DNA of 64,000 nt from Escherichia coli. Its GTDB lineage: Bacteria; Pseudomonadota; Gammaproteobacteria; Enterobacterales; Enterobacteriaceae. Positions 10,729 through 27,069 of this stretch are shown one piece after another. The notes beneath the pieces were generated by a model that saw nothing but the letters and a program-made list of their open reading frames with translations, made no database searches and had not been told where the DNA came from. Both the position numbers and the translations under genes were made by a program. Every line of letters starts with the position of its first letter. Position 1 is the first letter of the stretch. The stretch lies in assembly GCF_024502345.1 (NCBI RefSeq), contig NZ_JALDNN010000003.1; one strand, given 5' to 3'.

Positions 10729-11187
10729 ATGTCTGCATTGACTCCGTGGGACCCCTTCCGGGAACTGGATGAATTGCAAAACCGCCTGGCGACGATGTTG
10801 GGACGGACACCCCAGCGACAGGGCGCCCGTACCGGCAACGAAGCCCTGACCACGGCGGACTGGGCACCAATGGTGGACATCAGCGAGGATGAGAACGCAT
10901 TCCTCCTCAAGCTGGATCTGCCGGAGGTCCCCAAGGATGCCGTGCGCGTCAGCGCGGAAAACGGCGTGCTCACCATCAGCGGCGAGCGCAAACTGGAAAA
11001 AGAGGAGCAGGGCAAGAAATTCCACCGCATCGAACGTGCGTATGGCCGCTTTGTGCGCAGCTTTGTCTTACCTGACAACGTTGATCCGACCAAGGTGACG
11101 GCTTCGATGAAAGACGGCGTGCTGGAAGTGCGGCTTGTCAAGGCCGAGCAAGCCAAGCCGAAGCAGATTGAAATTTCAGTCAATTAA
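10729..11187 (+). CDS. Small heat-shock protein (Hsp20/IbpA-like)
   Basis: AGGAGA RBS; alpha-crystallin domain (DISEDENAFLLKLDLPEVPKDAVRVSAENGVLTISGERK). Confidence 0.9.
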   Translation: MSALTPWDPFRELDELQNRLATMLGRTPQRQGARTGNEALTTADWAPMVDISEDENAFLLKLDLPEVPKDAVRVSAENGVLTISGERKLEKEEQGKKFHRIERAYGRFVRSFVLPDNVDPTKVTASMKDGVLEVRLVKAEQAKPKQIEISVN

Positions 11188-11208
11188 CTTCAATTGGAGT
11201 CCAACATC

Positions 11209-12117
11209 ATGAATATCAAACAGCCCCAATACATCCGTTCCGCACTTGCCCTGGCGGTCTGCATCGGACTGAGTGGACCGGTTTTGGCCCAATCGGCGGC
11301 AAGTCCAAGCGCTGCAGCGCCCTCTGTCGCACCCAAGGCGGCGCAGCCACAAGTAGACGACAAGGCCGCCCAGGAAGCCGAAAAAAAGCGTTCCGAGCTC
11401 ACTCAGGACGCCATCACGGCGCTCACCAAGACCCAGGAGGCTTTGACCCTCCTTGATGCAAATAAGACCAAGGAGGCGCTCGCTGCGCTGGAACTGGCCA
11501 CCGGAAAGCTGGAACTGGTATTGGCACGCGACGCCAAACTTGCTTTGGCGCCGGTCGATGTACGCGTCATCACCCATGATATCCACGCCAACGTGGAATC
11601 GGTAAAGAAAGCGGTCAAGTTGTCTCGGGAGTTGTTGGGTGATGGCGAGGTGCAAAAGGCCCGGCCCATCGTTGCCAATCTGGCCAGCGAAATCGTGATC
11701 GAAACCGACAACCTGCCCATGGCAACGTACCCGGCAGCGATCAAGTCGGCTGCACGGCTCGTCGACAGCGGCAAGATCGACGAAGCCAAAGCAGAGCTCG
11801 CCCGAGCACTGAACACGCTGGTGGTCACCCAAGTTGTACTCCCTCTGCCCGTGCTACGGGCCGAAGCCGCGATAGCAAAAGCTGAAAAGCTGGCCGAGAC
11901 TGACAAGCGCGATGCCAAGCAGAACGAGGAGCTCAGCACCTTGCTGTCGTCCGTGCGCACGGAGATCGAGCTGGCGCAAATCCTGGGTTATGGCAAGAAG
12001 GAGGACTTCAAACCCATCTTCGATCAGGTGAAGTCCATTGAGCAAAAGTCGGCTGGTGGCAAAAGCGGCAATGGATGGTTCGACGAGTTGAAGACGCGCA
12101 TCCAAAAGCTGTTTTGA
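11209..12117 (+). CDS. yfdX: YfdX-family periplasmic protein (copy 1)
   Basis: Signal-peptide-like N-terminus (MNIKQPQYIRSALALAVCIGLSGPVLAQSA); repeat architecture shared with the next ORF. Confidence 0.75.
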   Translation: MNIKQPQYIRSALALAVCIGLSGPVLAQSAASPSAAAPSVAPKAAQPQVDDKAAQEAEKKRSELTQDAITALTKTQEALTLLDANKTKEALAALELATGKLELVLARDAKLALAPVDVRVITHDIHANVESVKKAVKLSRELLGDGEVQKARPIVANLASEIVIETDNLPMATYPAAIKSAARLVDSGKIDEAKAELARALNTLVVTQVVLPLPVLRAEAAIAKAEKLAETDKRDAKQNEELSTLLSSVRTEIELAQILGYGKKEDFKPIFDQVKSIEQKSAGGKSGNGWFDELKTRIQKLF

Positions 12118-12219
12118 GGTGATGAAGGGGCCGACTGCTCCATCGGTCAGTCTCGCGATATTCGCAGTCGGCCCCAATAGATTCCCCTATTTTCACTATC
12201 TCATACGAGGCATATCACC

Positions 12220-13107
12220 ATGAATGAGCAAACATCGAATCCCAACGCGATCAACGAAGGCACGAACGAACAGGCCGCGGTAAGCAGCCTTCCTGCCAGA
12301 CCAGAGCCCAAGCCTGAAGTCGTCACGGAGGTACAGCCTGAGGTTCAGAAGGAAACGGACTCGCAGGCGGCAGACAAACGTAAACAAGTCCTCGATGAGG
12401 CCGTCTCGGCCTTGGCGCTGACCAAATCAGCGCTGGCGGCCCTGGACGAAAAAGAATCCGCGCGAGCACTGGCAACGCTGGCCGAAGTGACGGGAAAGCT
12501 GGAGCTGATCGTTGCACGCGAACCCACGCTCGCCCTGGCCCCCGTTGATGTGCGCACCATCGTGCACGACTTGTTCGCCAACACGGAAACCATTGAGGCG
12601 ATGACCGACGAGGCGCTGGATGCCCTCAAACATGGCGAGGTGCAACAGGCTCGCCACGTGCTGGCTTTGCTGGCCAGTGAAATCGTGATCACGGTCACCA
12701 ACATCCCTCTGGCGTCCTATCCCGCAGCCGTGAAGGCAGTCGTGCCGCTGATCGATCAGGGCAAGATCGAAGAAGCCAAAGCCGCGCTGCAGTCAGCGCT
12801 CAGCACGCTGGTCGAGGAGCGCAGCGTGCTTCCGCTGCCCGTCCTGCGTGCGAAGCTGCTCCTGAAGCGCGCCGAGCCTCTGGTAGAAGATGGTCAGCGC
12901 AGCGAAGCATCCAATGAGCGCCTGGAGACATTGTTGAACGAAGCCCGGCAGCAGTTGGAAATGGCAGAACTGCTGGGCTATGGAAAAAGGAAGGACTTTG
13001 AGCCCCTGTACGCTGAACTCAAGAAAATCAAGGAAAAGACGGGAGGGGGAGGCTTCGGAAAAGGCTGGCTCGATGAAGTCAAGGCAAAACTGTCCAGGTT
13101 GTTCTGA
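12220..13107 (+). CDS. yfdX: YfdX-family protein (copy 2)
   Basis: Paralogous to the preceding ORF (shared ...GKLELxxAR(D/E)xxLALAPVDVRxIxHD...LLGYGKxxDFxP...). Confidence 0.75.
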   Translation: MNEQTSNPNAINEGTNEQAAVSSLPARPEPKPEVVTEVQPEVQKETDSQAADKRKQVLDEAVSALALTKSALAALDEKESARALATLAEVTGKLELIVAREPTLALAPVDVRTIVHDLFANTETIEAMTDEALDALKHGEVQQARHVLALLASEIVITVTNIPLASYPAAVKAVVPLIDQGKIEEAKAALQSALSTLVEERSVLPLPVLRAKLLLKRAEPLVEDGQRSEASNERLETLLNEARQQLEMAELLGYGKRKDFEPLYAELKKIKEKTGGGGFGKGWLDEVKAKLSRLF

Positions 13108-13115
13108 AACCGCTG

Positions 13116-13142
13116 GAGAGGGGGCGCATAGTGCCCCCTCTC
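13116..13142 (+). terminator. Stem-loop downstream of yfdX copy 2 (candidate terminator)
   Basis: GAGAGGGGGC-gcatagt-GCCCCCTCTC perfect 10-bp stem; T-rich tract follows only after about 20 nt. Confidence 0.45.
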
Positions 13143-13196
13143 TTGTCCCATGAGTGTTTGATTTTTTATTTTGTATAGATCTTTAGGAGATATTGC

Positions 13197-13808
13197 ATGA
13201 ACACAGACACCATCACCGATTCCAGTGCGGATGACCCCACCAAAGCACTGTGTTCGCTTAGCCAAAATTGGTGGCTTTTTGTGCTGCGCGGTGTCTTGGC
13301 ATTGATTTTTGCAGCCCTCGCGTTCTGGATGCCACAATCGGCTCTGTTGGCCATGACCATCATGTTCGGCGCATTTTCCTTGGTCAATGGCGCGTTCAAC
13401 TTGTTTGCAGCGGTGCGCCATATCCAGAAAAAAGAGCGCTGGGGCTGGTTGTTGTTCAGCGGCATTGTCGGCATACTTACGGGCGTCGTCGTCCTGGTTG
13501 CTCCTTGGGTCGCCACGATAGTCCTGGCTTCTTTTTTATGGGCTAGCGTGGGCTTCTGGGCGATTTTCACCGGTGTGCTGGAGATATCTGCCGCCGTTCG
13601 GCTGCGTCGGGAAATCAAGGGTGAAATCTGGCTTGCCCTCAGTGGACTGCTCTCGATTATCCTTGGTGCTATCGTCTTGTGGATATTTTTTACCCGCCCG
13701 GTCGAGTCATTCGTGGCCGCAGGCTGGCTGTTGGGTTTCCATGCGGCAGTCTATGGCGTCACGCTTTTGTTCTTGAGTTGGAGTCTTCGCAAAACGCGCC
13801 AGGGGTAA
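13197..13808 (+). CDS. hdeD: HdeD-family acid-resistance membrane protein
   Basis: Six hydrophobic segments; HdeD-like N-terminus (NWWLFVLRGVLALIFAALAF...). Confidence 0.8.
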   Translation: MNTDTITDSSADDPTKALCSLSQNWWLFVLRGVLALIFAALAFWMPQSALLAMTIMFGAFSLVNGAFNLFAAVRHIQKKERWGWLLFSGIVGILTGVVVLVAPWVATIVLASFLWASVGFWAIFTGVLEISAAVRLRREIKGEIWLALSGLLSIILGAIVLWIFFTRPVESFVAAGWLLGFHAAVYGVTLLFLSWSLRKTRQG

Positions 13809-13887
13809 GAGCGTGCCAAACCAAAATCTATGGATATGAGCATCCTCGATTCATGCCTCCATAGAAATGACATCGAAGGAGTCATAC

Positions 13888-14562
13888 ATGCAGATACAAT
13901 ATAGCTATCGAGCTATCGACAAAGAGTTTCATGAACCTTGGCAGAGAGCTTTGGGAAATGTGATCGAGCACGCCCTCAAGCCATTGCTCGACAAACACAC
14001 TAAAGATTCAGCGCGACTTCAAATCGTCCTTGATCGCGACAAGATCAAGCGGCAATTTCTGGCCAGTGGCTATATGCACCTGCCCGGCAAAAAGATTGTC
14101 AGTGTTACTGCATCACATGACGAGCTGACGCCCCTCGCGCAGATGCTCGCAAAGTCGTTGTTCCGTCAGGCCAAGAAGCATTTTGACCGACTGCATGCTC
14201 AGGATCAAATCAAGCGCAAAGCACGACGCGAGCGCTTGCGCGAGCTCAAGGTGCGGATTGCCGCAAAACCCGCATCAGCCGCCCATGAGGCCGAGGTGAT
14301 CCGAATGCCTCTACTGTCGAAACTTGAGGCTGTCGCAAGGCGTGAGCTGGCTTATCTGCGGGCCGTCGGCGATTTACCGCGCGATTATCCGACGCTGCGC
14401 GACGTGGTGGATGAAGCGATTGTCCAAGCTGAGGTGGAATGGCAATCCGTGCCGGAAGAAAAAGCGGTTCGGTATAAGACATGGGGGCAGCACCGTACCG
14501 GAAAGGTCAGGTGTTGCACTCAGTTTTTGCCGCCGCCAAGCATCAACCAGATAATCCGATGA
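13888..14562 (+). CDS. hypothetical protein (225 aa, basic/helical)
   Basis: AAGGAG RBS 6 nt upstream of ATG; no recognisable motif. Confidence 0.5.
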   Translation: MQIQYSYRAIDKEFHEPWQRALGNVIEHALKPLLDKHTKDSARLQIVLDRDKIKRQFLASGYMHLPGKKIVSVTASHDELTPLAQMLAKSLFRQAKKHFDRLHAQDQIKRKARRERLRELKVRIAAKPASAAHEAEVIRMPLLSKLEAVARRELAYLRAVGDLPRDYPTLRDVVDEAIVQAEVEWQSVPEEKAVRYKTWGQHRTGKVRCCTQFLPPPSINQIIR

Positions 14563-14645
14563 GATGCCGGTCTGTCTCACTCTCATGCAAAGGTAAGATC
14601 AACCATTTAATCCGCTTACCCCAGAATAATAGGGAGTGCATATAA

Positions 14646-15557
14646 ATGCATTTTTTGAATTTGCAGGTCACACAGGCAGAGCTCCTATCCGGCCTTATTT
14701 CCGTTTCCCAAACAGTTGCACAGATTGTGCTCGTCATGACCGTGGCGTGGCTCGTGTCCGCAGTGCTTTCGCGGGCCATCACACGCATCAGCAAAAGAAC
14801 CCGCACTTCCAAGAGATCTGCAGATGAGGTCAAACGCATTGAAACATCTCTTCGTCTGATCCGTTTCGTCAGTCGGCTGGTCGTGTGGGCCTTGGCCGTG
14901 ACCATTTCCCTCTCAATCCTTGGCATTTCTGTGGCACCGATCCTGACGACTGCGGGGGTAAGCGGCATCGCAGTGGGGTTTGCTGCGCAGAGCCTGATAA
15001 AAGACTATTTTTCGGGTTTGGTCTTGTTGCTGGAAGGGCAACTCCGCATCGGGGATATCGTGGATATTGGCGGTGTGGCAGGCCAAGTCGAAGAGATGAC
15101 GTTGCGCTATGTGCGCCTGCGTCAACTCAATGGTGACGTGGTCTATGTGCCCAACGGAGCCATCACCAATCTGACAAATAAGACAACGGACTATTCGATG
15201 GCCGTAATCGATGTCGGTGTCGCCTATCGCGAAAACCTTCAGGAGGCATTGAACGTTATGGAGAGTGTCGCCCGTGAGCTAGCTTCGGAAACAACCTGGT
15301 CAACGAGAATATTAGCCGAGCCAGAGGTCTTTGGGGTCGAAACGTTGGGTGACTCTTCGGTTATCCTGCGTCTTCGCCTCAAGGTCTTGCCAGGTGAGCA
15401 ATGGTCAATCCGGCGCGAATATCTGCACAGGATAAAACAGCGCTTCGACGAACTTGGCATCGAAATCCCTTATCCGCATCTGACGCTTTATGCCGGCCAG
15501 GACAAGGATGGAAAAGCCCCTGCCTTTCGGATCGAAGCTCCGGCTGGTGCCCAATGA
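14646..15557 (+). CDS. MscS-family mechanosensitive ion channel
   Basis: Three N-terminal TM helices and the conserved MscS core (GIAVGFAAQSLIKDYFSGLVLLLEGQLRIGDIVDIGGVAGQVEEMTLRYVRL). Confidence 0.8.
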   Translation: MHFLNLQVTQAELLSGLISVSQTVAQIVLVMTVAWLVSAVLSRAITRISKRTRTSKRSADEVKRIETSLRLIRFVSRLVVWALAVTISLSILGISVAPILTTAGVSGIAVGFAAQSLIKDYFSGLVLLLEGQLRIGDIVDIGGVAGQVEEMTLRYVRLRQLNGDVVYVPNGAITNLTNKTTDYSMAVIDVGVAYRENLQEALNVMESVARELASETTWSTRILAEPEVFGVETLGDSSVILRLRLKVLPGEQWSIRREYLHRIKQRFDELGIEIPYPHLTLYAGQDKDGKAPAFRIEAPAGAQ

Positions 15558-15568
15558 CACGGCCAAAA

Positions 15569-16388
15569 GGCACTGTTGCAAATAGTCGGTGGTGATAAAC
15601 TTATCATCCCCTTTTGCTGATGGAGCTGCACATGAACCCATTCAAAGGCCGGCATTTTCAGCGTGACATCATTCTGTGGGCCGTACGCTGGTACTGCAAA
15701 TACGGCATCAGTTACCGTGAGCTGCAGGAGATGCTGGCTGAACGCGGAGTGAATGTCGATCACTCCACGATTTACCGCTGGGTTCAGCGTTATGCGCCTG
15801 AAATGGAAAAACGGCTGCGCTGGTACTGGCGTAACCCTTCCGATCTTTGCCCGTGGCACATGGATGAAACCTACGTGAAGGTCAATGGCCGCTGGGCGTA
15901 TCTGTACCGGGCCGTCGACAGCCGGGGCCGCACTGTCGATTTTTATCTCTCCTCCCGTCGTAACAGCAAAGCTGCATACCGGTTTCTGGGTAAAATCCTC
16001 AACAACGTGAAGAAGTGGCAGATCCCGCGATTCATCAACACGGATAAAGCGCCCGCCTATGGTCGCGCGCTTGCTCTGCTCAAACGCGAAGGCCGGTGCC
16101 CGTCTGACGTTGAACACCGACAGATTAAGTACCGGAACAACGTGATTGAATGCGATCATGGCAAACTGAAACGGATAATCGGCGCCACGCTGGGATTTAA
16201 ATCCATGAAGACGGCTTACGCCACCATCAAAGGTATTGAGGTGATGCGTGCACTACGCAAAGGCCAGGCCTCAGCATTTTATTATGGTGATCCCCTGGGC
16301 GAAATGCGCCTGGTAAGCAGAGTTTTTGAAATGTAAGGCCTTTGAATAAGACAAAAGGCTGCCTCATCGCTAACTTTGCAACAGTGCC
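15569..16388 (+). mobile_element. IS26 (IS6 family), copy 1, intact 820 bp
   Basis: 14-bp terminal inverted repeats GGCACTGTTGCAAA at 15569 and TTTGCAACAGTGCC ending 16388; canonical tnpA inside; flanking 8 bp differ (no direct target duplication). Confidence 0.95.
15632..16336 (+). CDS. tnpA: IS26 transposase Tnp26
   Basis: MNPFKGRHFQRDIILWAVRWYCKYGISYRELQEMLAERGVNVDHSTIYRWVQRYAPEME..., 234 aa. Confidence 0.95.
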   Translation: MNPFKGRHFQRDIILWAVRWYCKYGISYRELQEMLAERGVNVDHSTIYRWVQRYAPEMEKRLRWYWRNPSDLCPWHMDETYVKVNGRWAYLYRAVDSRGRTVDFYLSSRRNSKAAYRFLGKILNNVKKWQIPRFINTDKAPAYGRALALLKREGRCPSDVEHRQIKYRNNVIECDHGKLKRIIGATLGFKSMKTAYATIKGIEVMRALRKGQASAFYYGDPLGEMRLVSRVFEM

Positions 16389-16709
16389 GAAGAAACAACC
16401 GCGTACTGGATGATTACCCCACCAAAAGGGAAAATATTAGGCGTTGTCAAAGGGAAACCTGCGTGGGTTGATATTCCTCCGCCAACACAGGAAGAGCTGA
16501 TCCAGGTCGCTGAGCGTGAGAAAAAGCGACTAATTAATGTGGCTAACGACTTCATTAATAGTAAACAATGGCCTGGTAAAGCGGCAATCAAACGACTGAA
16601 AGACAATGAACTGGTGCAATACAATCTGTGGCTTGATTATCTTGATTACCTTGAATCAACAGACGCATCAACAGCACCTGATATTGACTGGCCTGAGATG
16701 CCAATATAG
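16389..16709 (+). pseudogene. Phage tail-fibre assembly protein (Tfa), C-terminal fragment truncated by IS26
   Basis: Frame is open from the IS26 boundary; C-terminus ...LWLDYLDYLESTDASTAPDIDWPEMPI resembles Tfa C-termini. Confidence 0.6.
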
Positions 16710-16819
16710 GAACCTTTTGTGGATTGAGATTTTTAATGTCAGCGAAGCTCTTCGTCAAAAGTGAAACTCTGATAACCTGGTTCTACTGACGAACAGAAGG
16801 ATAAGCAGGAGATCGCTTT

Positions 16820-17380
16820 ATGATTATTGGGTATGCACGAGTATCAAGTAACCATCAGGACACCGAGCTTCAGATGCAGGCGCTCAGAGCTGCTGGCTGT
16901 AAGTTAATTTTTGAGGAAAAGGCTTCTGGCCGTAAGACGAACCGACCAATTTTGAAGAAAGTGGTTGAGATGCTTGAACCCGGTGACGAGCTGGTCATCT
17001 GGAAGCTGGATCGTATCGGTCGCAATGTGCTGCACGCATTATTGACGTTTCAGAGCCTCGCAGAACGCAATGTTAACATCCGTTCTATTACTGATGGCGT
17101 TGACCTGAGTACCGCCAGTGGGCGCTATAACTTCCGTAATATTCTCTCTGCGGCACAATATGAGTCTGATCTGAATAGTGAACGCACTTTGGCGGGGTTA
17201 GCGGTTGCCCGCGCTAAGGGGAGGATTGGCGGACGTAAGCCTAAGTTCACTAATGAGCACTGGGATGCGTTTGAACGGGAAATTAAGTCCGGCTGCTCAC
17301 ATCGTGATATAGCTCTCAAATATGGAGTCGGCCTGTCGACTCTCTACAAACGTTATCCGGCTCAGCAAGAGCATCAGTAA
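16820..17380 (+). CDS. Serine recombinase, DNA-invertase type (Hin/Gin/Pin/Cin-like)
   Basis: MIIGYARVSSNHQDTELQ... with catalytic Ser near the N-terminus and C-terminal HTH (GVGLSTLYKRYPA); position after a tfa fragment matches phage invertible-segment layout. Confidence 0.85.
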   Translation: MIIGYARVSSNHQDTELQMQALRAAGCKLIFEEKASGRKTNRPILKKVVEMLEPGDELVIWKLDRIGRNVLHALLTFQSLAERNVNIRSITDGVDLSTASGRYNFRNILSAAQYESDLNSERTLAGLAVARAKGRIGGRKPKFTNEHWDAFEREIKSGCSHRDIALKYGVGLSTLYKRYPAQQEHQ

Positions 17381-17622
17381 ACACTCTTTGCGTTCATTTT
17401 TGCACTGTGCAGAATGTGTCTTTTTGGCACCTTCCGACAGTGCAAAATTTATCGCGTTTTTGTGCAAAAAAAATCGCCGCGCTACAAAACGTGTGCTATA
17501 CTTGTGCTCATGCGGTTGGATTTCCTATCCCCCCGACCCGCGCTGCGGCGGGCCGAAAAATCCCAGGGATGGGTTTTTTCGGTGTTTTCCTCGTTGGCAC
17601 ATTCAAGAGTAAGGAGCGTTCC

Positions 17623-18231
17623 ATGAAGCTGTATTACACCCCCGGCGCCTGTTCCATGGCCCCGCACATCGCCCTGCGCGAAGCCGGCCTGAAATTCGAC
17701 CTGGAAAAGGTCGACCTGATGACCAAGAAAACCGAATCGGGCGCCGACTTCACCGCCATCAATCCCAAAGGCTACGTGCCGGCGCTGCAGCTCGACAACG
17801 GCCAGGTGCTGACCGAGGTCGGCGTGGTGCTGCAATACATCGCCGACCAGAAGCCGGGCAGCGGACTGGCCCCGGCCGCCGGCACGCTCGAGCGCTACCG
17901 CCTGATGGAGATGCTGAATTTCATCTCCACCGAGCTGCACAAGAACTTCGGTCCGCTGTTCAACCCGGCGGCCGGCGACGACGCCAAGAAAGCAGCCATC
18001 GAGATGATCGGCAAGCGCCTTGGCTACCTCGACCAGCAGCTGGCCGGCAAGCAGTATCTGCTCGGTGACACCTTCACGGTGGCCGACTGCTACCTCGCCA
18101 CCATGCTCGGCTGGTGCCAGTACGCCAAGCTCGACCTGTCGGCCTGGCCGAACATCGGCGCTTACGCCGGCCGCGTGATGAGCCGCCCGGCGGTGATCGA
18201 GACGATGAAGGCCGAAGGCCTGATGGGCTGA
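17623..18231 (+). CDS. Glutathione S-transferase
   Basis: AAGGAG RBS; MKLYYTPGACSMAPHIALREAGL... typical GST N-terminal thioredoxin-like fold; about 67% GC. Confidence 0.8.
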   Translation: MKLYYTPGACSMAPHIALREAGLKFDLEKVDLMTKKTESGADFTAINPKGYVPALQLDNGQVLTEVGVVLQYIADQKPGSGLAPAAGTLERYRLMEMLNFISTELHKNFGPLFNPAAGDDAKKAAIEMIGKRLGYLDQQLAGKQYLLGDTFTVADCYLATMLGWCQYAKLDLSAWPNIGAYAGRVMSRPAVIETMKAEGLMG

Positions 18232-18314
18232 GGGCCACCTGCCGATGCGGCGCGGGTCACGCCCGCGCCGCACGGCGTCAATCCATACCCCCCATCGATT
18301 CCCCAGGAGCCCCC

Positions 18315-19106
18315 ATGCTCGTCGAACGCATCTGGACCGGTAATTCGTACCGCAACTTCAACTACCTGATCGCCTGCCCCGAGACCGGCGAAGCGCTGGC
18401 GATCGATCCGCTGGACCATGAAAAAACCCTGAACACGGCCAGGGTCAAGGGCTGGCAGATCACGCAGATCCTCAACACGCACGAGCACCACGACCACACC
18501 GGCGGCAACGCGGCCGTGGTGGCGGCCACCGGCGCCAAGGTGATCGCGCACCACAAGGCCGCGGGCAAGATCGAAGGCATGGACCGCGGCGTGAAGGCCG
18601 GGGACGTGATCAAGGTCGGCCGGCACATCGAACTGGAATGCCTGGACACGCCCGGCCACACGATGTGCCACATCTGCCTGCGCTCGCACACCGACGAGCC
18701 GGCGCTGTTCTCCGGCGACACGCTGTTCAACGCGGGCGCGGGCAACGTGCACTACGGCGGCAGCGTGGACGAGCTCTACACCACCTTCGTGCAGCAGCTC
18801 GCGAAGCTGCCGGAGAACACCCGCGTCTACCCGGGGCACGACTACATCGAGAACAACCTGCGCTTCACGCTCGCGCGCGAGCCCGGCAACGCGGCCGCGC
18901 AGGCATTGCTGCCGCGGGTGACCGGGCATGACCCGGCCACTTCGGTGGTCACCACGCTGGCCGAGGAGAAGCGCTTCAACACCTTCTTCCGCCTGGCCAG
19001 CCCCGAGGTGATCGCCAAGCTGCGCGAGAGCTTTCCCGAGCTGCCGGAACAGCCCGACGCGAAGACCGTGTTCACCAAGCTGCGCGAGCTGCGCAACCAG
19101 TGGTGA
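18315..19106 (+). CDS. gloB: Hydroxyacylglutathione hydrolase (glyoxalase II), metallo-beta-lactamase fold
   Basis: AGGAG RBS; metal-binding motif THEHHDHTGGN; C-terminal glyoxalase-II-like region. Confidence 0.75.
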   Translation: MLVERIWTGNSYRNFNYLIACPETGEALAIDPLDHEKTLNTARVKGWQITQILNTHEHHDHTGGNAAVVAATGAKVIAHHKAAGKIEGMDRGVKAGDVIKVGRHIELECLDTPGHTMCHICLRSHTDEPALFSGDTLFNAGAGNVHYGGSVDELYTTFVQQLAKLPENTRVYPGHDYIENNLRFTLAREPGNAAAQALLPRVTGHDPATSVVTTLAEEKRFNTFFRLASPEVIAKLRESFPELPEQPDAKTVFTKLRELRNQW

Positions 19107-19151
19107 GCAGCGGCCGGCGCCGGCCCCTTACTTCAGCGTGAACCGCACGGT

Positions 19152-20165
19152 GTGCACTTCCATGTCTGCGCAGTCGATGGCGTGTTTGAGGAAGTGGCGG
19201 GCGAGGAGGGCGATGCTGCTGATGCAGCTTCTCAAAGCTCACCATCGCGCATCATCTTCCACCCCGCCACCGGCGTGACTGCGGATGCCGTGGGTCAGGT
19301 GCAGGCCAGCTTACGCAAACGCATCCTGCGCGCCTTTGTCGGACGGGGCCTGCTGGAGAGTTTCGAGGCCCAAGAGATGCTGGGCTACAAGCACAGCGGG
19401 TTTTCGGTGGACACCAGCGTGTGCATAGCGGCGCACGACCGCGCCGGGCTGGAGCGGCTGCTGCGCTACTGCGCCCGCCCGCCGTTTGCCATGGAGCGGC
19501 TGCGCAAAGCGGGCAGCGAGCTGGTCTACCGCTGCGCCAAGCAGCACAGCGAGCCCGGCAGCCTGCCTCACAACAAGCGCGGCGTAAAGGCCGATGAGAT
19601 CACCCTCACCCCGCTGGAGCTGATTGAACGTATCGCCAAGCTGGTGCCCCCGCCGCGCACGCACCGCCACCGCTACTTTGGCGTGCTGGCACCGAACTCA
19701 CCCTTGAGGCCTGCCGTCACGGCGCTGGCGCGTGATGCAGCGGTGAAACCGGCGCAGGTGCAAGCCGAGCCAGCCAGCACGGCTGCAGGCGAGGGCGCAC
19801 TTGGGGTAAGAAGCCCACTGCCAACCCAGACCGAGCCCGCCCAGCCGGTGCCACCCAAGCGCCCGGCGCACTATTTGTGGGCGGTGCTGATGGCCCGTAT
19901 CTACGAGGTGTTCCCGCTGCTGTGCCCCATCTGCGGCGGGCAAATGCACATCATCGCCTTCATCACACACAGTGCCGATATCCGCCAAATACTGGAGCAC
20001 ATCGGGGTGGAGACGGAGCCGCCGCACATCACCCCGGCACGCGGGCCGCCACTGTGGGACGAGTGCGACGCGCAAGCCGCAGAGGGCGTGGAGCCAGCCC
20101 CAGACTGGGATGAAGCGACCCAACCGGCCCCGGACTTCGAGGTCGATCAGCGCGTCAGTTGGTAG
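19152..20165 (+). pseudogene. IS91/ISCR-family (HUH, rolling-circle) transposase, N-terminally truncated
   Basis: ORF opens at an HUH-like motif (HFHVCAVDGVF) and contains HRHRYFGVLAPNS and a CPICGG zinc-ribbon-like motif; no N-terminal domain; abuts the gloB stop. Confidence 0.4.
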
Positions 20166-20582
20166 GGTGGCAACAGCGGTTAACAGTGGTTTTGCCAACG
20201 TTGCGAGGCAGCGCTGCGCCTGTCACCGCCAAAAACGGGTCATACCGAAAAATCTCGGGCAACTGGCTTTGAGAAATCAACCCAGCAGTCCCCTGTGTGC
20301 ATGCCTGAGACGCCCCAAACTGTGGGGAGGTGATCGTTTTTGCATGGGGGAGAGGTCTTGATAAAATGCCGGGAGGGCTTGCGGTAAGCGAGATTGAGAG
20401 AAAAACTGAGTTTTGCACTACTAAAAAAGAAATGAGAAAAAATAGCTATTTTTGCGTTTAATTTTGCACTTTTATGAAAGTCTTTAGATCCGTTTTAAAG
20501 ACCGTTTAAGCATTTATCAATGCCAGGCACTATACCGTATAGTAGGTTGGTATGTAAGAAGTTGGCTCTGACACCATCTAGC

Positions 20583-21215
20583 TTAAACGGCCTTCTTGTC
20601 TTCACTTGTTAGGCCAGATTCGGCTGCCTTCTGATCAAGTTCAGATGACCCTTTTTTCATCTGCTCATGTATTCGAAGTAAGCGCTCTTGTTCTGCTTGT
20701 GGTAGTTCTACCAGTACGCTGAGCGTATCGTTATATTTCGAGAGAAGATCTAGTACACCTCTAACCCCCATCCTTGCATAGATATCGATGAGTTTCTTTT
20801 TCTCATCGTGGTCTAATGCTTCAAAAAACATTGCCCATGTTAGAGATAAAAATTTGTCATCCTTAAGTGGCACTGCTGTAAATGCGAAAGGACTTGAGCC
20901 ATCGGTTAAACCATTCTCTATGATTGGTTGAGCCTGTCCATTGCTGCTATGAGCTTCATCCAACATGTAGACGCCATCCTTACCGGTCGCTAGCCACGCA
21001 AGGCTCACGTTTTCTATCTCTGAAATTTTCACCAGGATTTCCACACTCGGAGTGGCTGAACGTGCGAAGTAGTTGTTCAGCGTCGAGTATGGCAGGTCCC
21101 AATCTAGAGAAACTTTCCTGAGACTTCTCCCTTTGAAAAGAGACTTCATCCTATCGCGAATACTTTCTTTTCCTGATTGAGCAAAAGAAACATTCTCTTT
21201 CTTTACTGTATTCAT
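20583..21215 (-). CDS. Mu-like phage repressor (c/Repc family)
   Basis: 210 aa ending ...SEDKKAV (Mu repressor ends ...KKAV); divergent from ner. Confidence 0.65.
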   Translation of the reverse strand: MNTVKKENVSFAQSGKESIRDRMKSLFKGRSLRKVSLDWDLPYSTLNNYFARSATPSVEILVKISEIENVSLAWLATGKDGVYMLDEAHSSNGQAQPIIENGLTDGSSPFAFTAVPLKDDKFLSLTWAMFFEALDHDEKKKLIDIYARMGVRGVLDLLSKYNDTLSVLVELPQAEQERLLRIHEQMKKGSSELDQKAAESGLTSEDKKAV

Positions 21216-21397
21216 TTTCTTTTCCTTTTAACTGGTTGAAATAATTAATTAAAATTGATTTTCTCACCTGAGTTTTCTCACATGAGAAAAGAAAGAGCTT
21301 TATTTGCTTTACTCTTTCTCAAATTGGATCAATACTTATCCCAACGGATAACCCCTGCGGATTATCCGCCCGGTTAACTTTTTAGGGTAATCGAAGT

Positions 21398-21625
21398 ATG
21401 GAAATAAATGAAGTACAGCGTGACTGGCATCGCATTGATATTGTCGCCGAGCTGCACAAGCGTGGCGTCACTATGCGCGGCCTTTCCGCCAGCGCGGGAC
21501 TAAAACCCGACACGCTGAAAAATGCGCTGGCACGCTCTTATCCAAAAGGAGAGCGCATTATTGCAAATGCTCTCAATTTAGAACCCGCCAGTATCTGGCC
21601 AAGCCGTTACAACAAGGACCTGTGA
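21398..21625 (+). CDS. ner: Ner-like DNA-binding protein
   Basis: 75 aa; ...RDWHRIDIVAELHKRGVTMRGLSASAGLKPDTLKNALARSYPKGERIIANALNLEPASIWPSRY matches Mu Ner closely. Confidence 0.75.
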   Translation: MEINEVQRDWHRIDIVAELHKRGVTMRGLSASAGLKPDTLKNALARSYPKGERIIANALNLEPASIWPSRYNKDL

Positions 21626-21626
21626 C

Positions 21627-21742
21627 ATGTTCGTGACTGTTAACGAATTAGTTGGCGTCCCTGGACTGCCAACAACACAACAAGGACTGCGATACAGCCT
21701 TAAAAAAAGTGCAGGCAACTCCCCTGAACTGGTTCGCAAACG
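21627..21742 (+). pseudogene. MuA-like transposase, first 39 codons only (truncated by IS26)
   Basis: MFVTVNELVGVPGLPTTQQGLRYSLKKSAGNSPELVRKR starts 2 nt after the ner stop as in Mu; interrupted by the IS26 left repeat. Confidence 0.5.
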
Positions 21743-22562
21743 GGCACTGTTGCAAATAGTCGGTGGTGATAAACTTATCATCCCCTTTTGCTGATGGAGC
21801 TGCACATGAACCCATTCAAAGGCCGGCATTTTCAGCGTGACATCATTCTGTGGGCCGTACGCTGGTACTGCAAATACGGCATCAGTTACCGTGAGCTGCA
21901 GGAGATGCTGGCTGAACGCGGAGTGAATGTCGATCACTCCACGATTTACCGCTGGGTTCAGCGTTATGCGCCTGAAATGGAAAAACGGCTGCGCTGGTAC
22001 TGGCGTAACCCTTCCGATCTTTGCCCGTGGCACATGGATGAAACCTACGTGAAGGTCAATGGCCGCTGGGCGTATCTGTACCGGGCCGTCGACAGCCGGG
22101 GCCGCACTGTCGATTTTTATCTCTCCTCCCGTCGTAACAGCAAAGCTGCATACCGGTTTCTGGGTAAAATCCTCAACAACGTGAAGAAGTGGCAGATCCC
22201 GCGATTCATCAACACGGATAAAGCGCCCGCCTATGGTCGCGCGCTTGCTCTGCTCAAACGCGAAGGCCGGTGCCCGTCTGACGTTGAACACCGACAGATT
22301 AAGTACCGGAACAACGTGATTGAATGCGATCATGGCAAACTGAAACGGATAATCGGCGCCACGCTGGGATTTAAATCCATGAAGACGGCTTACGCCACCA
22401 TCAAAGGTATTGAGGTGATGCGTGCACTACGCAAAGGCCAGGCCTCAGCATTTTATTATGGTGATCCCCTGGGCGAAATGCGCCTGGTAAGCAGAGTTTT
22501 TGAAATGTAAGGCCTTTGAATAAGACAAAACGCTGCCTCATCGCTAACTTTGCAACAGTGCC
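21743..22562 (+). mobile_element. IS26, copy 2, intact 820 bp (one substitution versus copies 1 and 3)
   Basis: Terminal repeats at 21743 and 22549-22562; ACAAAACGCTGCC near the right end versus ACAAAAGGCTGCC in the other copies; no flanking 8-bp duplication. Confidence 0.95.
21806..22510 (+). CDS. tnpA: IS26 transposase Tnp26
   Basis: Identical translation to copy 1. Confidence 0.95.
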   Translation: MNPFKGRHFQRDIILWAVRWYCKYGISYRELQEMLAERGVNVDHSTIYRWVQRYAPEMEKRLRWYWRNPSDLCPWHMDETYVKVNGRWAYLYRAVDSRGRTVDFYLSSRRNSKAAYRFLGKILNNVKKWQIPRFINTDKAPAYGRALALLKREGRCPSDVEHRQIKYRNNVIECDHGKLKRIIGATLGFKSMKTAYATIKGIEVMRALRKGQASAFYYGDPLGEMRLVSRVFEM

Positions 22563-23246
22563 GTTTTACTTTCCCGCACAATCAACAAGCTGGAGCCGGG
22601 TTCTTGCACATTCCCGCAGGAGTTCAATCATAAGCGTTGGCTGGACCAGGAATTCAATGACGGAATGGCCAAAATGTTTGGCATCTCCTCATGGGATGAC
22701 TTACTGGATGGCCCGAAAAAAGCCATTTTGCCGAGTTCTGCGGCCTGGTATGACCGCAAATTTAAAACCCCCTCAGGAAAGTTTGAGTTCAGATCTGAGC
22801 TGTGTGAGAAAAATGGCCATACGGCGCTGCCGGAATACAAACCGGAGGCGAAAAGCACGCTGCCATTCCACTTGTTTACACCGCATGTGCAGTTCGGTAT
22901 CCATTCCCAATTTATCAACCTTGACTGGATGCAGGTCTTCTATCCGGAGCCGTTTGTCTATATGCATCCGATTTCCGCAGAAAAAAGAGGCATTGCCGAA
23001 AACGACCTGGTGAAAGTGTTTAACACCGTAGGTGAAGTAGAACTGCGTGCGAAGGTGACCGCTAACGTTCCGGAAGATTTCCTGGTGATGTACGAGGCGT
23101 GGTTCCCGAAAAGGAAATACAACGTTCAAAACGTGGTGGCAGATACCCCAGCCGATATGGGGTTGATGAAAACCGGTGCGCCAGGTGCGGCTATCCACAG
23201 TCAGTTTGCGGACATCATTTTGATCAGTAAAGGAGCAGCGGCATGA
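22563..23246 (+). pseudogene. Molybdopterin oxidoreductase catalytic subunit (DmsA/PhsA-like), C-terminal fragment truncated by IS26
   Basis: Frame is open from the IS26 boundary to the stop at 23246; overlaps the Fe-S subunit start (ATGA). Confidence 0.55.
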
Positions 23247-23800
23247 GACGCGCGTTTTTAGTTAATAGCGATAAATGCATCGGCTGCCGTGGCTGTGCAA
23301 TGGCGTGTAAGAGTTTTAACCAGTTGGAACCTGAACGTTTCTGGCGCTATGTCTACCCGCTGGATAAAGAAATTTATCCGCATGAAGAGCGGGCGTTCTA
23401 TTCGCTGGCCTGTAACCACTGCGAAAACCCGGCCTGTCTGGCGGCGTGTCCGGTAGAGGCGTACACCAAGCGTGAAGATGGTGTCGTGGTGCATAACCCA
23501 GAGCGCTGTATTGGATGCAAAAACTGTATCCGCAACTGCCCATACGGTGCGCCGCGTTTTAATGAGGAGACGAAGAAAGCGGAAAAATGCAGCATGTGCT
23601 ACGAGCGCCTTGATGTTGGTATGCAACCGGCTTGCGTGAATGCCTGTCCGGTAGGTGCGCTGACGCTTATCGATCTGGATGCCGATCCTATACCTGACAA
23701 TGCCGTACAGTATCCGCCGGGATTCCCGCGTATGCCGCAGCTTAATCCTGGCACGCGTTTTATCCTTGCGCGTCAGCCGAAGCAGCCGGAGGGTAATTAA
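23243..23800 (+). CDS. 4Fe-4S ferredoxin-type electron-transfer subunit of an anaerobic molybdo-oxidoreductase
   Basis: Four Cys clusters (CIGCRGCAMAC, CNHCENPACLAACP, CIGCKNCIRNCP, CSMC...CVNACP). Confidence 0.8.
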   Translation: MRRAFLVNSDKCIGCRGCAMACKSFNQLEPERFWRYVYPLDKEIYPHEERAFYSLACNHCENPACLAACPVEAYTKREDGVVVHNPERCIGCKNCIRNCPYGAPRFNEETKKAEKCSMCYERLDVGMQPACVNACPVGALTLIDLDADPIPDNAVQYPPGFPRMPQLNPGTRFILARQPKQPEGN

Positions 23801-24567
23801 TGGAAAAGTATGAACTTCCGCTGGTCATTTTTACCGTATTGAGCCAGATGTCGGTTGGGATCACGCTCATTCTGACGCTACGCACGCTGCAAGGAAAACT
23901 GGAAAGCAAACGCCTGTACTGGCTGGTAAGTGGGCTGGTTCTGGCGGTGGCGTCCGTTGCAGCGATCCTGCACCTTGCGCATCCGGATCGCGCCTACGAT
24001 GCCCTGATTAACCTGCAGCACGCCTGGCTGAGCCGTGAAATTCTTGGCGCCACCTTATACGGTGCGGCGGTCGGGGTGACGTTTTTGGCAAAAGGGCACA
24101 AAGCGCCAGCTGTTCTGGCCTCTGTTCTCGGTATCGCGCTGGTGGCGGTGCAGGGGATGACCTATGCTGCCCCGGCAATGGTGGCGATCGCCAACGGTCT
24201 GACAATGCTGTTGTTCTTTATCACGGTGTGGGTGATGGGGTGTGCGGCGATTCCACTGCTTAACCTTGCACCTGCCGTTGCCGCATTACGCCAGGGGATT
24301 GTTGTGTGTATGGCGGTCATGATCGCCGCGCCCATTATCTGGCTAAGCGGCGGCACCATCATGCAGATGACGGCGCATGCCTGGCTGACGTCGCCGCTTT
24401 ATCTGGCGAGTCTGGTGTGTCTGGCGGTGGCCTTTGTGCTAAGCCGTCAGGGAGAGCGTCGCGCAAAAGCGCTTTTTGTCCTGCTGTTTGTTGGCATATT
24501 CCTGAGTCGTCTGACGTTCTTTGGCGATACGATCAGCACCATCGTGAATATCGGTCATTTGTATTGA
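23800..24567 (+). CDS. Integral-membrane anchor subunit (DmsC/NrfD-like)
   Basis: 255 aa, about 8 hydrophobic helices, start overlaps the upstream stop. Confidence 0.6.
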   Translation: MEKYELPLVIFTVLSQMSVGITLILTLRTLQGKLESKRLYWLVSGLVLAVASVAAILHLAHPDRAYDALINLQHAWLSREILGATLYGAAVGVTFLAKGHKAPAVLASVLGIALVAVQGMTYAAPAMVAIANGLTMLLFFITVWVMGCAAIPLLNLAPAVAALRQGIVVCMAVMIAAPIIWLSGGTIMQMTAHAWLTSPLYLASLVCLAVAFVLSRQGERRAKALFVLLFVGIFLSRLTFFGDTISTIVNIGHLY

Positions 24568-24584
24568 TCGTGAGGTAATAAAAA

Positions 24585-24612
24585 CCCCTGTCAGGCGTTA
24601 ACCTGACAGGGG
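24585..24612. terminator. Bidirectional rho-independent terminator between convergent genes
   Basis: CCCCTGTCAGG-cgttaa-CCTGACAGGGG flanked by AAAA upstream and TTTTC downstream. Confidence 0.65.
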
Positions 24613-24636
24613 TTTTCTTTAGCGAATCAGTGGCTG

Positions 24637-25065
24637 TTAACGAACAACCAGCACTGGCAAAGTCGCGTGGCGGACAACGCTGGAAGCGTTTGAGCCGAGC
24701 AGATGGGTGCTGATTGATGGGTTACGCGACCCAATGACAACGACATCTGCATTCAACTCTTCACCCAACTCGTTGACCACATCACGGACACTGCCAAAGC
24801 GGACGTGTTGCTTAATACGGGAAGGATCGATGCTGAAGTGACCGACCATCGTTTGCAGACGGGTTTCCGCTTCGTGTTGCAGATGCTCTTCAAAACGACG
24901 GACATCGGCCGCAAAGCGGTGCAGGCTTAAGCTCGCTGAGCCTGGCAGCACATGCAGCAGATGGATAACCCCTTTATCCTGGGCCAGAAATTCTGCATGG
25001 CGAATAGCCTTGTCGCTCAGTTCCATTTCGAATACATCAACAGGCATTATGATTGTGTTGTACAT
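24637..25065 (-). CDS. uspG: Universal stress protein (UspG/UspF type)
   Basis: AAGGAG RBS; [48 protein letters not shown]...; adjacency to rnk favours uspG. Confidence 0.75.
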
Positions 25066-25248
25066 AAACATTCTCCTTGTCATTACATGAACACATAACA
25101 GCATAGTATTAAAAATGATTCTGTCAGTCACGACACAGATTTATGTTTTGCGAACAGGAAAGAAAGCGAGGAGCAGGGAGATCTAACCGGAAAGAGGATG
25201 CAGATGCATCCTCTGTAAGATAAAGCGAGTGGCTTTGATAAGACAGAG

Positions 25249-25659
25249 TTAGCGCAGGTAGTCGCCTGCAGCTTCAGGCTGGTACTCAAGCTCAATAACT
25301 TCGAGGTGCGTTGAGGTCCCGCCTGGCAGTTCCCAGTGAATGGTATCACCAACGCGCAGCCCCAAAAGTGCAGCGCCGACAGGTGCCATTACCGAAAGCT
25401 GTGTGCTGCTGTCAGTCATAGTGGCCGGATACACCAGGGTACGCACACGGACTTCGCCATCACTCAGATTGCGGAATTTCACGCGGCTGTTCATGGTCAC
25501 GACATCGTGCGGCATGGTTTCTGGAGAACACATTTGGGCACGATCCAGCTCGGCGTTAAGGGCGTCGGCAATCGGTAAACCAGCAAACGCAGGTTGCTCC
25601 AACAGGCGGTCAATGCGTTCCGCATCGAGGTCGTTAATGATGATAGTTGGTCTGGACAT
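25249..25659 (-). CDS. rnk: Regulator of nucleoside diphosphate kinase (GreA/GreB-like)
   Basis: [79 protein letters not shown]... Confidence 0.9.
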
Positions 25660-25889
25660 TTATTACTCCATGTCGTCGATACTGCGGGTGCGCAGGTAAA
25701 TAATCCCAAAAGAAAACCCTCACCGTCAGGCGGCAAGGGTTTAGCTTTTATGATGATACTGAGACTTACCCCATGTTTGAAGTGATTTAGTTCACATTCA
25801 GGCAAATCATCAATATTGTCGCGTATGGTGTAATGTCAGTCAGTTAACGAACCTAAGGTAATAAATCTGTTGCCTCCGTCGCATTGCTA

Positions 25890-26070
25890 CGTTCACCTTA
25901 TGTTATTCACTTCTCTGAAACCATCCTACCTGTGAACGTGTTAAGGGTACTATCGCCGTACCCTTAACAATCCCGGCGGGAGCCTGGGTTGCAAGGGAGG
26001 CGGCGGTGAGCCTCCCTTGCTCGTTCACGGGTATCAGTGCTTCAGAGAAGTGATACCGCTGAGGTGAACG
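25890..26070. other. Highly structured intergenic element: three nested long-range helices enclosing two perfect hairpins
   Basis: Pairings 25890-25898/26062-26070, 25907-25919/26041-26053 (13 bp), 25932-25938/26022-26028; hairpins GTTAAGGGTAC...GTACCCTTAAC (25940-25968) and GCAAGGGAGG...CCTCCCTTGC (25991-26020); stems conserved while spacers differ. Confidence 0.4.
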
Positions 26071-26238
26071 GAACCCTGAGCCGGGATCACATGTTCCCTA
26101 TAATGCTTAACTGACAAGCATTACGCGTATGGTGTGATTTTAGCCGAAAAACGTGATCGTTCTCCAATTTGCATTATGCTTTTTAAGCGCTCGCTGCGGG
26201 CGCGTCAAACAACTCAGTGTTCCGCGACAGGAGATCTC

Positions 26239-27069
26239 ATGAGCCAGTACGACAAACTTACCTTGAAAGACGGCAGCTATTTGCATTTTAAAGATTGGGG
26301 AAGTGGACAGCCCATTGTCTTCAGTCATGGTTGGCCGCTGACGGCAGATGCGTTTGAGGATCAGATGTTATTCCTCGGGTCGAAAGGATTTCGTGTGATC
26401 GCCCATGACAGGCGTGGGCATGGGCGTTCGGCCCAACCCTGGGATGGTCACAATATGGAGCAGTATGCTGACGATCTGGCTGAACTTACCGCGCATCTCA
26501 ATCTTAAAGATGCCGTCCATGTCGGACACTCTACCGGCGGCGGGGAAGTGGCGCGGTATATTGGCCGCCATGGAACGCAGCGGGTCGCAAAAGCGGTGTT
26601 AATTGGCGCGGTGACGCCCATTATGATCAAGACTGACTTTAATCCAAATGGCGTGCCGAAAGAGGTATTCGATGGCATCCGTGAGGGGGTTGTGAACGAT
26701 CGCGCCGCCTTTTTCTATGAATTGACCGCTGCATTCTATGGCTACAACCGTCCTGGCGCAAAAGAGTCGAAAGCCGTCAGGGAAAGTTTTGTTGAACAGG
26801 GTTTACAAGGTTCCATCAAAGCGTTGTACGACTGTATCCACGCGTTTTCGGAAACAGATCTGCGTGAGGATCTCAAAAAGATGACCATCCCGACGCTGGT
26901 GATCCACGGTGATGACGATCAGATTGTCCCGTTTGAAACCTGCGGAAAGGTCGCGGCGGAAATACTGCCTGATTCGCAGTTGAAGGTATATGTCGGCGGC
27001 TCGCATGGCATTTGCACCACCCATAAACAACAGATCAACGGTGACCTGCTCAACTTTATTCAGTCGTAA
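26239..27069 (+). CDS. Alpha/beta-hydrolase (non-haem haloperoxidase/esterase type)
   Basis: GGAG RBS; nucleophile elbow GHSTGGG; 277 aa. Confidence 0.75.

Follow-up and report, generated by a model that had tools for sequence, protein, structure and literature searches.

An IS26-bounded plasmid unit of Escherichia coli carrying a chimeric and putatively isothiazolinone-protective gstA-gloB operon between the ends of a Mu-like phage

The gstA-gloB block and a cloned preservative-resistance determinant

This study concerns a stretch of 64,000 nucleotides of Escherichia coli DNA (NCBI RefSeq assembly GCF_024502345.1, contig NZ_JALDNN010000003.1), referred to as the window, whose coordinates are used throughout. 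Set into phage DNA, the window harbors a foreign block of 2,834 bp (17487-20320), slightly broader than the region originally delimited (17497-20165), which encodes on the plus strand a glutathione transferase, a hydrolase of the glyoxalase II type and part of an IS91/ISCR-like transposase. The first gene, gstA (17623-18231, 202 amino acids), is assigned by the Pfam domains GST_N and GST_C and is preceded by the ribosome-binding site AAGGAG (17611-17616) at a distance of 6 nucleotides from the ATG; the second, gloB (18315-19106, 263 amino acids), encodes a predicted metallo-β-lactamase (MBL)-fold hydrolase with the Pfam domains Lactamase_B and HAGH_C, both over their cut-offs, and has the ribosome-binding site AGGAG (18305-18309) 5 nucleotides from its ATG. 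The strong ribosome-binding site that the original prediction, made from the sequence without database searches, had ascribed to each gene is thus present. The computed G+C content is 0.644 for gstA, 0.665 for gloB, 0.667 for the transposase fragment and 0.653 for the whole block, compared to 0.464 and 0.432 for the flanking phage DNA, so that the earlier value of about 67% for both genes holds for gloB and is slightly high for gstA. Open reading frames, Pfam domains and base composition together confirm that a GC-rich pair of a glutathione transferase gene and gloB, followed by an IS91-like reading frame, lies between phage DNA.

The transposase reading frame (19152-20165, 337 amino acids) starts with GTG, opens with VHFHVCAVDG and matches Pfam Y2_Tnp (E=2e-29), the alignment beginning at profile position 18. 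It is in one reading frame with gloB, and no stop codon occurs from the gloB TGA (19104-06) to the GTG at 19152. Thus, the earlier observation that the reading frame follows gloB in the same frame and opens at its HUH motif is correct; the proposed fusion, however, had to be rejected, because the TGA stop lies between the two and homology to full-length transposase copies begins abruptly at 19151, within the codons E-H-V-H-F-H. Position 19150/19151 accordingly represents a truncation junction and the common frame a coincidence.

GstA resembles the beta-class glutathione transferase GstA over its full length: the NCBIfam GstA equivalog NF007831 (cut-off 198 bits) matches residues 1-200 of 201 with a score of 247.6 bits. 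The gloB product shares with glyoxalase II the C-terminal HAGH domain and the metal site of the MBL fold, HxHxDH, which is present as THEHHDH in the translation, and an identical protein is labelled hydroxyacylglutathione hydrolase in RefSeq. Its scores with the curated GloB models are 190.5 bits for TIGR03413 (cut-off 200.8) and 106 for NF007597 (cut-off 421). GloB-type enzymes normally hydrolyse S-lactoylglutathione.

A function for this pair of genes has recently been reported. Hauf et al. (Appl Environ Microbiol 2026; PMC13274388) described a gstA-gloB 'glutathione operon' on an 81.8-kb conjugative plasmid of the Klebsiella oxytoca complex isolate PHS-894, the isolates originating from liquid soap preserved with methylisothiazolinone/chloromethylisothiazolinone (MIT/CMIT). 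When cloned into pUC19, the operon raised the minimal inhibitory concentration of MIT/CMIT for E. coli about eightfold; the effect was lost in a glutathione-deficient gshA mutant, and susceptibility to benzisothiazolinone (BIT) and antimony was unchanged (PMC13274388). Alignment of the cloned insert (supplement S2 of that paper) with positions 17043-19168 of the window gave 2126 of 2126 identical bases, so that gstA and gloB are identical to the genes of the cloned resistance fragment. The order of features is likewise the same in the 81.8-kb plasmid and in the window, running from IS26 through a truncated tail-fibre assembly gene (tfa'), an invertase gene, gstA, gloB and the IS91 fragment to a repressor gene c, ner, a MuA' stub (55 amino acids in the paper) and a second IS26. 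The identical DNA and the common order of features mean that the window holds the published determinant. Judged by sequence, the GC-rich pair is the plasmid-borne gstA-gloB MIT/CMIT detoxification operon already published, and glutathione-dependent protection against MIT/CMIT is predicted for the copy in the window by virtue of its identical DNA. The two plasmids differ in a single residue of the 337-amino-acid transposase fragment (V to A) and in their backbones, that of PHS-894 being IncL/M-like with an ars operon and that of the window IncHI1A-like, with the unit directly beside a transmissible heat-resistance locus (tLST). While the function was established in 2026, IS26 and IS91 are unmentioned in the main text of Hauf et al. 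and a term search of it found no discussion of the origin of the operon; the present study adds an analysis of that origin, a link to Pseudomonas aeruginosa RW109, the footprint of delivery by a Mu-like phage and the co-location with the tLST. The plasmid pCESC2, which is named in the same paper, was not among the DNA matches to the block and was not used.

The ISCR-like element and the two lineages of the operon

What the block retains of the ISCR-like element are the 3' two-thirds of its transposase gene (19151-20165, codons ~190-526), the 3' non-coding part up to the phage insertion point (20166-20320) and, at the other end of the block, the last 46 bp with the oriIS-type end (17487-17532, ...CATGCGGTTGGATTTCCTATCCCC), which in native copies is contiguous with position 20320. 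Full transposase copies of 526 amino acids are 99.8-99.9% identical to the window fragment from 19151 onward and possess an N-terminal Zn_Tnp_IS91 domain; the window copy starts at about codon 190, lacks this zinc domain, and its first residues, VHFHV, lie inside the HVHFH (HUH motif) of the full copy. The assignment to the IS91/ISCR families, for which the original prediction had looked to profile searches, was upheld by the Pfam match to Y2_Tnp and by the best NCBIfam model, 'ISCR clade Ia'. The full-length copy of pCT14 scored 253.7 bits with this model (cut-off 925) and 93.7 bits with IS91 (cut-off 125), neither curated cut-off being reached, so that the transposase is related to both and falls into neither curated model. 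In RefSeq, the full-length copies are labelled IS91 family transposase.

In native copies, the oriIS-type terminus (...GGATTTCCTATCCCC) is located 201 bp past the transposase stop codon. Among the collected loci it abuts 33 distinct flanks in 61 occurrences, and the oriIS-like end that had been called for is thus found at 17487-17532. ISCR1-type elements are defined by a constant oriIS end with variable downstream DNA (PMC6218425). Among the GTDB species representatives, those with the terminus are chiefly Betaproteobacteria (Sulfuritalea, Aquabacterium, Comamonadaceae, Extensimonas, Serpentinimonas), and none belongs to the Enterobacterales. Duplications of the ori end seem to be common: in OW968028.1 (collected locus L004, 14209-14295), the ori end is followed by a tandem second copy of its last 36 bp (TATACTTGTGCTCATGCGGTTGGATTTCCTATCCCC), and in pCT14 (locus L002, 6336-6493) the last 120+46 bp of the element are partially repeated at a separate place.

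Directly before the transposase ATG of pCT14 (L002, 4413-4428) we found a LexA box, CTGTGTATTTGCACAG (CTGT-N8-ACAG), suggesting SOS control as reported for ISCR1, ISCR2 and ISCR8; the box is gone from the truncated copy in the window. The LexA box of ISCR8 is CTGTGCATTTGTACAG (PMC13393415), and this exact box was in none of the 15 collected loci. As the two boxes differ at 2 of 16 positions, we did not adopt the name ISCR8 and refer to the element, on sequence grounds, as ISCR8-like. In common with ISCR1 and ISCR8 are an HUH/Y2 transposase of ~500-526 amino acids, a LexA box overlapping the transposase promoter, and a conserved oriIS-type terminus ~200 bp past the stop codon, followed by variable cargo. 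In contrast to such elements, the window has only a 5'-truncated and inactive copy, from which codons 1-189, the promoter with the LexA box and the terIS side are missing and whose own ori end lies beyond the end of a Mu-like phage. Since the 5' codons, promoter and upstream part are gone and the ori end is displaced, this copy should not be able to be active, and we regard it as a dead remnant that is predicted to mobilise nothing.

The block has close matches outside of the Enterobacterales. By Megablast, it is found at 99.6-99.9% identity on plasmids of Azonexus, Burkholderia contaminans (IncP), Pseudomonas sp. CT14, P. putida, Acidovorax JS42, Comamonas and others, the matches in the group of Azonexus, Burkholderia, Pseudomonas and Acidovorax including chromosomes as well, in agreement with the foreign origin initially proposed. 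The closest non-identical relatives of the two genes, by comparison, point to different sources. For gstA these are, at 88-90% amino acid identity, genes on the chromosome of Immundisolibacter cernigliae and in metagenomic genomes related to it, the I. cernigliae gene itself being identical at 90% of amino acids and 88.7% of nucleotides (from ribosome-binding site to stop codon); they occupy a conserved, housekeeping-type neighborhood between an epimerase gene and argS, from which gloB is absent. For gloB they are the chromosomal gloB genes of Comamonadaceae (Polaromonas, Rhodoferax, Caenimonas; 82-90% amino acid identity), without an adjoining glutathione transferase gene. Because the nearest chromosomal relatives belong to different classes and neither has the other gene adjoining, gstA and gloB do not appear to be a natural pair. 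Instead, the sequence comparison shows the operon to be a chimera of a gstA of the Immundisolibacter type (Gammaproteobacteria) and a gloB of the Comamonadaceae type (Betaproteobacteria).

A second line of evidence comes from the arrangement of the genes in environmental hosts, where each of them sits immediately downstream of an oriIS-type end of the ISCR-like element. Azonexus, the chromosome CP015344.1 and P. aeruginosa RW109 have, in succession, ISCR-ori, 97 bp, gloB, ISCR 3' fragment, ori, gstA and then other DNA; a full 526-amino-acid ISCR with the same 3' end adjoins gloB and gstA in these three and gloB in Burkholderia pBCO-3. The database search that had been suggested, for the pair next to ISCR/IS91 elements, thus finds an ISCR adjoining each gene, the environmental order being gloB-ISCR fragment-ori-gstA. 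The equivalent of window position 18287 is the last base of the gstA segment in Azonexus, CP015344.1 and RW109, and in the same three and in pBCO-3 the gloB segment starts at ~18285-18288. The junction of the two segments in the window (18287-18288) therefore separates sequences which occur apart in other contexts, and, as the breakpoint 18287/18288 is the same, the enterobacterial order (ori-gstA joined to gloB-ISCR fragment) is an exact circular permutation of the environmental one. The fused gstA-gloB junction is absent from all GTDB species representative genomes. On the other side of gstA, the ori end adjoins the gene at three nested junctions, 17533 (window and CP015344.1), 17586 (Azonexus) and 17603 (RW109); a 53-bp spacer on the plus strand between ori end and gstA leader (17533-17585), with two small hairpins, one of them detected by the repeat finder at 17553-17582 (I16), is found also in CP015344.1.

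RW109 is a preservative-tolerant industrial isolate of P. aeruginosa. Its chromosome (LT969520.1, ~6.985-7.005 Mb; L006 and L007) carries three tandem units of 3,913 bp, each ISCR-gstA-DUF6537-orf68, in which gstA encodes the identical protein, followed by a fourth ISCR and then gloB. The array lies downstream of a cyanuric-acid (atzD-type) cluster. The published RW109 papers make no mention of glutathione or of these genes.

Mu-like phage ends and the IS26-bounded unit

The block is bracketed by two exact Mu-like termini in inside-out order, the right end (attR) lying to its left and the left end (attL) to its right. The right end (17381-17486, plus strand) has its terminal repeat at 17463-17486 and ends with ...CGCCGCGCTACA; it is preceded by the gene of a DNA invertase of the Gin/Pin type (16820-17380, plus strand; Pfam Resolvase and HTH_7, phrog_125) and by the 3' fragment of the tail-fibre assembly gene (16410-16709, plus strand; Caudo_TAP positions 37-130 of 131, phrog_188), which is cut by IS26. 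The left end (20321-20582, plus strand) has its terminal repeat at 20321-20344, starts with TGTGGGGAGGTG, and is followed by the repressor gene c (20583-21215, minus strand; Pfam Phage_CI_repr, phrog_3037), a ner-like regulator gene (21398-21625, plus strand; Pfam HTH_35, E=6e-28, phrog_769) and the first 38 codons of a Mu-type transposase A gene (21627-21742, plus strand; phrog_310 positions 8-43), again cut by IS26. The repeat finder identified a 24-nucleotide inverted repeat (I2) which pairs 17463-17486 with 20321-20344, 2,834 nucleotides apart, and TTTTGCAC motifs (repeats D2, D4, D6, I5 and I14) that are repeated in the left end and common to the right end.

The identification of these termini is founded on intact prophages. 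Many of them encode a repressor and an invertase identical to those of the window; they also have a 685-amino-acid MuA, a MuB-like ATPase and Mu Gp48, as well as genes for the baseplate. The identical repressor gene adjoins ner and the genes of MuA and the MuB-like protein, a full-length 685-codon gene occupying the position of the MuA' stub, and in ten prophages the invertase gene is the last one before the right end. These ten end at the exact equivalent of 17486 and continue into ten unrelated flanks; eight end at the exact equivalent of 20321, followed by eight unrelated flanks. These 10 and 8 independent Mu-like prophages settle the nature of the ends. A match in the chromosome of E. coli E41 (L016, locus 5352-6108) was dropped as proof, since the prophage concerned is P2-like: it has the same invertase gene and the downstream 107 bp, ending at the Mu-like right terminus (...CGCTACA), between tail-fibre genes and the sheath gene, and resembles the fossil of a Mu-like end lodged within a P2-like phage. 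No left end of this phage was found in complete E. coli genomes or in the phage collection, IMG/VR gave no match by the exact left-end sequence or by the repressor protein, and the Mu-like phage DNA matched no phage record in the collection. With phage Mu, it shares the left-end order c-ner-A-B, a right end with an invertible tail-fibre segment and an invertase gene, 5'-TG...CA-3' termini, imperfect terminal inverted repeats and insertion at many unrelated sites; unlike Mu, it has no com/mom region from the invertase gene to the right end.

The two ends of the block are adjacent in the native ISCR (...GCCCCAAAC followed by GTGTGC...), and AAAC is present at both phage junctions, an overlap of the flanks by 4 bp relative to the native ...GCCCCAAACGTGTGC. 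This configuration is consistent with a prophage in a circular molecule, with a segment between two phage copies or with a duplication junction. Two IncL/M plasmids from Madrid, OW968028 and OW968043, have the same left part as the window (IS26-tfa'-invertase-attR-gstA-gloB) up to position 20320; beyond it follow the intact ori end, a further ~4.6 kb of native DNA and a full ISCR copy that is cut by IS26. Both forms could go back to one ancestor in which ~7.4 kb of native DNA separated the phage ends; the window form might then have arisen by recombination between two ISCR copies, and the Madrid form by an IS26-adjacent deletion. In KE702178.1 (L033, locus 6001-12631), the same Mu-like prophage is intact and its left end adjoins tLST genes (MscS, DUF308/hdeD, two YfdX, HSP20); this is the neighborhood of the window without IS26 or the gstA-gloB block.

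The phage remnant in the window is confined to 1.1 kb and 1.4 kb, as the two IS26 copies have removed all of the phage but its ends. The left copy (15569-16388, plus strand; DDE_Tnp_IS240) has its 14-bp inverted repeats GGCACTGTTGCAAA at 15569 and 16375-88 and is annotated as IS26 in matching plasmids; the right copy (21743-22562) lies in direct orientation, also on the plus strand, with inverted repeats at 21743 and 22549-62. Several enterobacterial plasmid contigs whose backbones differ (L010, L012, L015) carry the unit of ~7 kb thus delimited (15569-22562) at 99.97-100% identity, and variants show IS26-adjacent deletions on the left side (L009 and L011) or on the right side (OW968028). On both sides of the unit, the backbone of the window is 100% identical to that of the E. 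coli IncHI1A plasmid NZ_LR890350.1, in which another segment occupies the interval between these IS26 positions, and the 8-bp sequences outside the unit, GGCCAAAA and GTTTTACT, are not duplicated. The missing duplication indicates that the unit probably arrived by recombination between IS26 copies or by cointegrate resolution; taken together with its recurrence and the backbone comparison, it suggests that the unit acts as an IS26 pseudo-compound transposon exchanged via its IS26 copies. On this basis the original prediction, which regarded the IS91-like element as the mobiliser, has to be revised: the ISCR copy is truncated and inert, and the present vehicle of the block is, as judged from the sequence, the IS26-bounded unit. 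The latter has in common with IS26 pseudo-compound transposons and translocatable units that two direct IS26 copies bracket a passenger on several backbones; unlike the IS26 units of resistance plasmids, it carries as passenger not an antibiotic-resistance gene but an operon for biocide detoxification, accompanied by debris of phage and ISCR.

Some further features surround the unit. The tLST extends from ~4400 to 15557, up to the left IS26, with a 969-amino-acid ClpK-like reading frame, ftsH, hsp20-GI, yfdX1, yfdX2, hdeD-GI and a gene for an MscS channel. To the right (22563-31200), genes for DmsB/DmsC-like proteins, uspG, rnk, the gene for RNase I, citT and citG are shared with NZ_LR890350.1 and look like enterobacterial chromosomal genes on a plasmid. 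A third IS26 left inverted repeat is located at 39045, with an IS26 transposase reading frame at 39090-39812 and a right inverted repeat only at 42353-66, so that 39045-42366 may represent a further copy and a lone end or an interrupted structure.

Assembly of the operon and alternative explanations

Taken together, we consider it very probable that 15569-22562 is an IS26-bounded unit carrying a chimeric, MIT/CMIT-protective gstA-gloB operon, which reached its present form via steps involving an ISCR element, a Mu-like phage and IS26. According to this model, GstA would catalyse the attack of glutathione on the isothiazolinone, and GloB, as a thioester hydrolase of the glyoxalase II type, might process the glutathione adduct and recycle glutathione. 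The pair would have been assembled in the environment by ISCR-associated events, among which rolling-circle capture is a step that we infer. The Mu-like phage could then have inserted into the 3' end of the ISCR; the target would have been circular, or else a duplication, or recombination from one ISCR copy to another, would have followed. Finally, IS26 would have packaged the segment and distributed it over enterobacterial plasmids. The more specific proposal, that the operon is a recent chimera and not an ancestral operon, built beside ISCR oriIS ends under preservative selection in industrial or wastewater settings and then carried by the Mu-like phage and IS26 to the Enterobacterales, where it has come to lie next to the tLST on a large conjugative plasmid, is put forward tentatively, as we rate its chances at somewhat under even.

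Several observations weigh against parts of this model. The gloB product scores slightly below the curated GloB cut-off of TIGR03413, and gstA and gloB were tested as a pair, their individual roles being left open by the authors (PMC13274388). The clone of that study sits behind the lac promoter of the vector, and a promoter scan upstream of gstA yielded no convincing sigma-70 candidate. The junction overlap of 4 bp departs from the 5-bp duplications of phage Mu, and the variant in OW968028 means that more than one history is possible. With regard to the assembly, transposition has yet to be demonstrated for any ISCR element (PMC6218425). By eye, a weak sigma-70-like sequence, TTGTGC-17 nt-TACAAA (17460-17488; 7 of 12 matches, under the threshold of the scan), can be seen across the junction of phage end and ISCR, and it is the sole visible candidate for a promoter created by this junction upstream of gstA.

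Classic one-ended IS91 transposition mobilises DNA on the terIS side. Taken literally, the original prediction would mean that a pre-existing cassette of both genes from one donor was taken up by one-ended rolling-circle transposition of an IS91/ISCR element, which still carries it here. The transposase fragment of this family, the oriIS-type end 90 bp upstream of gstA, the full ISCR copies flanking the genes in environmental hosts and the documented circular IS91 intermediates with cargo genes (PMC5737581) all speak for such a capture. A single donor is, however, contradicted by the different nearest relatives of the two genes, which are not neighbors in either lineage. The environmental order gloB-ISCR fragment-ori-gstA and the location of the genes on the oriIS side and not the terIS side also speak against this reading; as a carrier, the ISCR copy is disqualified by its missing 189 codons, promoter and terIS, by the phage that separates it from its ori end and by the IS26 boundaries of the present unit. 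We therefore regard the capture of a natural cassette as unlikely. Much the same small probability is given to the view that gstA-gloB is a general housekeeping module against methylglyoxal and other electrophiles, whose effect on biocides is incidental and which hitch-hikes on plasmids without selection. The usual role of GloB-type enzymes in S-lactoylglutathione turnover and the derivation of both genes from chromosomal loci of the housekeeping type would agree with this, and Hauf et al. left open whether the affinity for MIT/CMIT is by chance (PMC13274388). Yet no gloA accompanies the pair, the isolates came from MIT/CMIT-preserved soap and the operon confers resistance (PMC13274388), the industrial, preservative-tolerant P. 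aeruginosa RW109 has three tandem copies of the identical gstA, and the sequence is conserved at 99.9-100% over many plasmids and hosts.

A further alternative, concerning the delivery by the phage, is less probable still. Mu-type headful packaging includes up to a few kb of host DNA of the right flank. The inside-out ends might hence stem from a Mu-like virion with ~2.8 kb of right-flank and ~0.1 kb of left-flank host DNA that was circularised by recombination in a new host, assuming that both flanks ended in the same ISCR 3' sequence. That attR and attL face the block, that the ends of the block are contiguous in the native ISCR, and that the block starts and finishes in ISCR 3' sequence would all fit. 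In OW968028 and OW968043, however, the native DNA extends by ~4.6 kb more, too long for a packaged flank, and the pattern is indistinguishable from that of a prophage in a small circular molecule or of unequal crossing-over between ISCR copies.

Few preservatives are used as widely as isothiazolinones, and it was not until 2026 that a transferable operon dedicated to their detoxification was reported, from one soap isolate. The identical unit is now seen on a different, IncHI1A-like plasmid and directly beside a transmissible heat-resistance locus, so that one plasmid could be co-selected by heat treatment and by the use of preservatives. As the exact GstA protein is present in 846 index blocks of public assemblies, the determinant appears to be already widespread, yet largely unannotated as a resistance gene. 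Leads to its origin are provided by the two donor lineages, the assembly adjacent to ISCR, the tandem amplification in an industrial Pseudomonas and the unusual delivery by a Mu-like phage and IS26. If the proposed chimeric assembly under preservative selection is true, the three tandem ISCR-gstA units of RW109 would represent a trace left by such selection.

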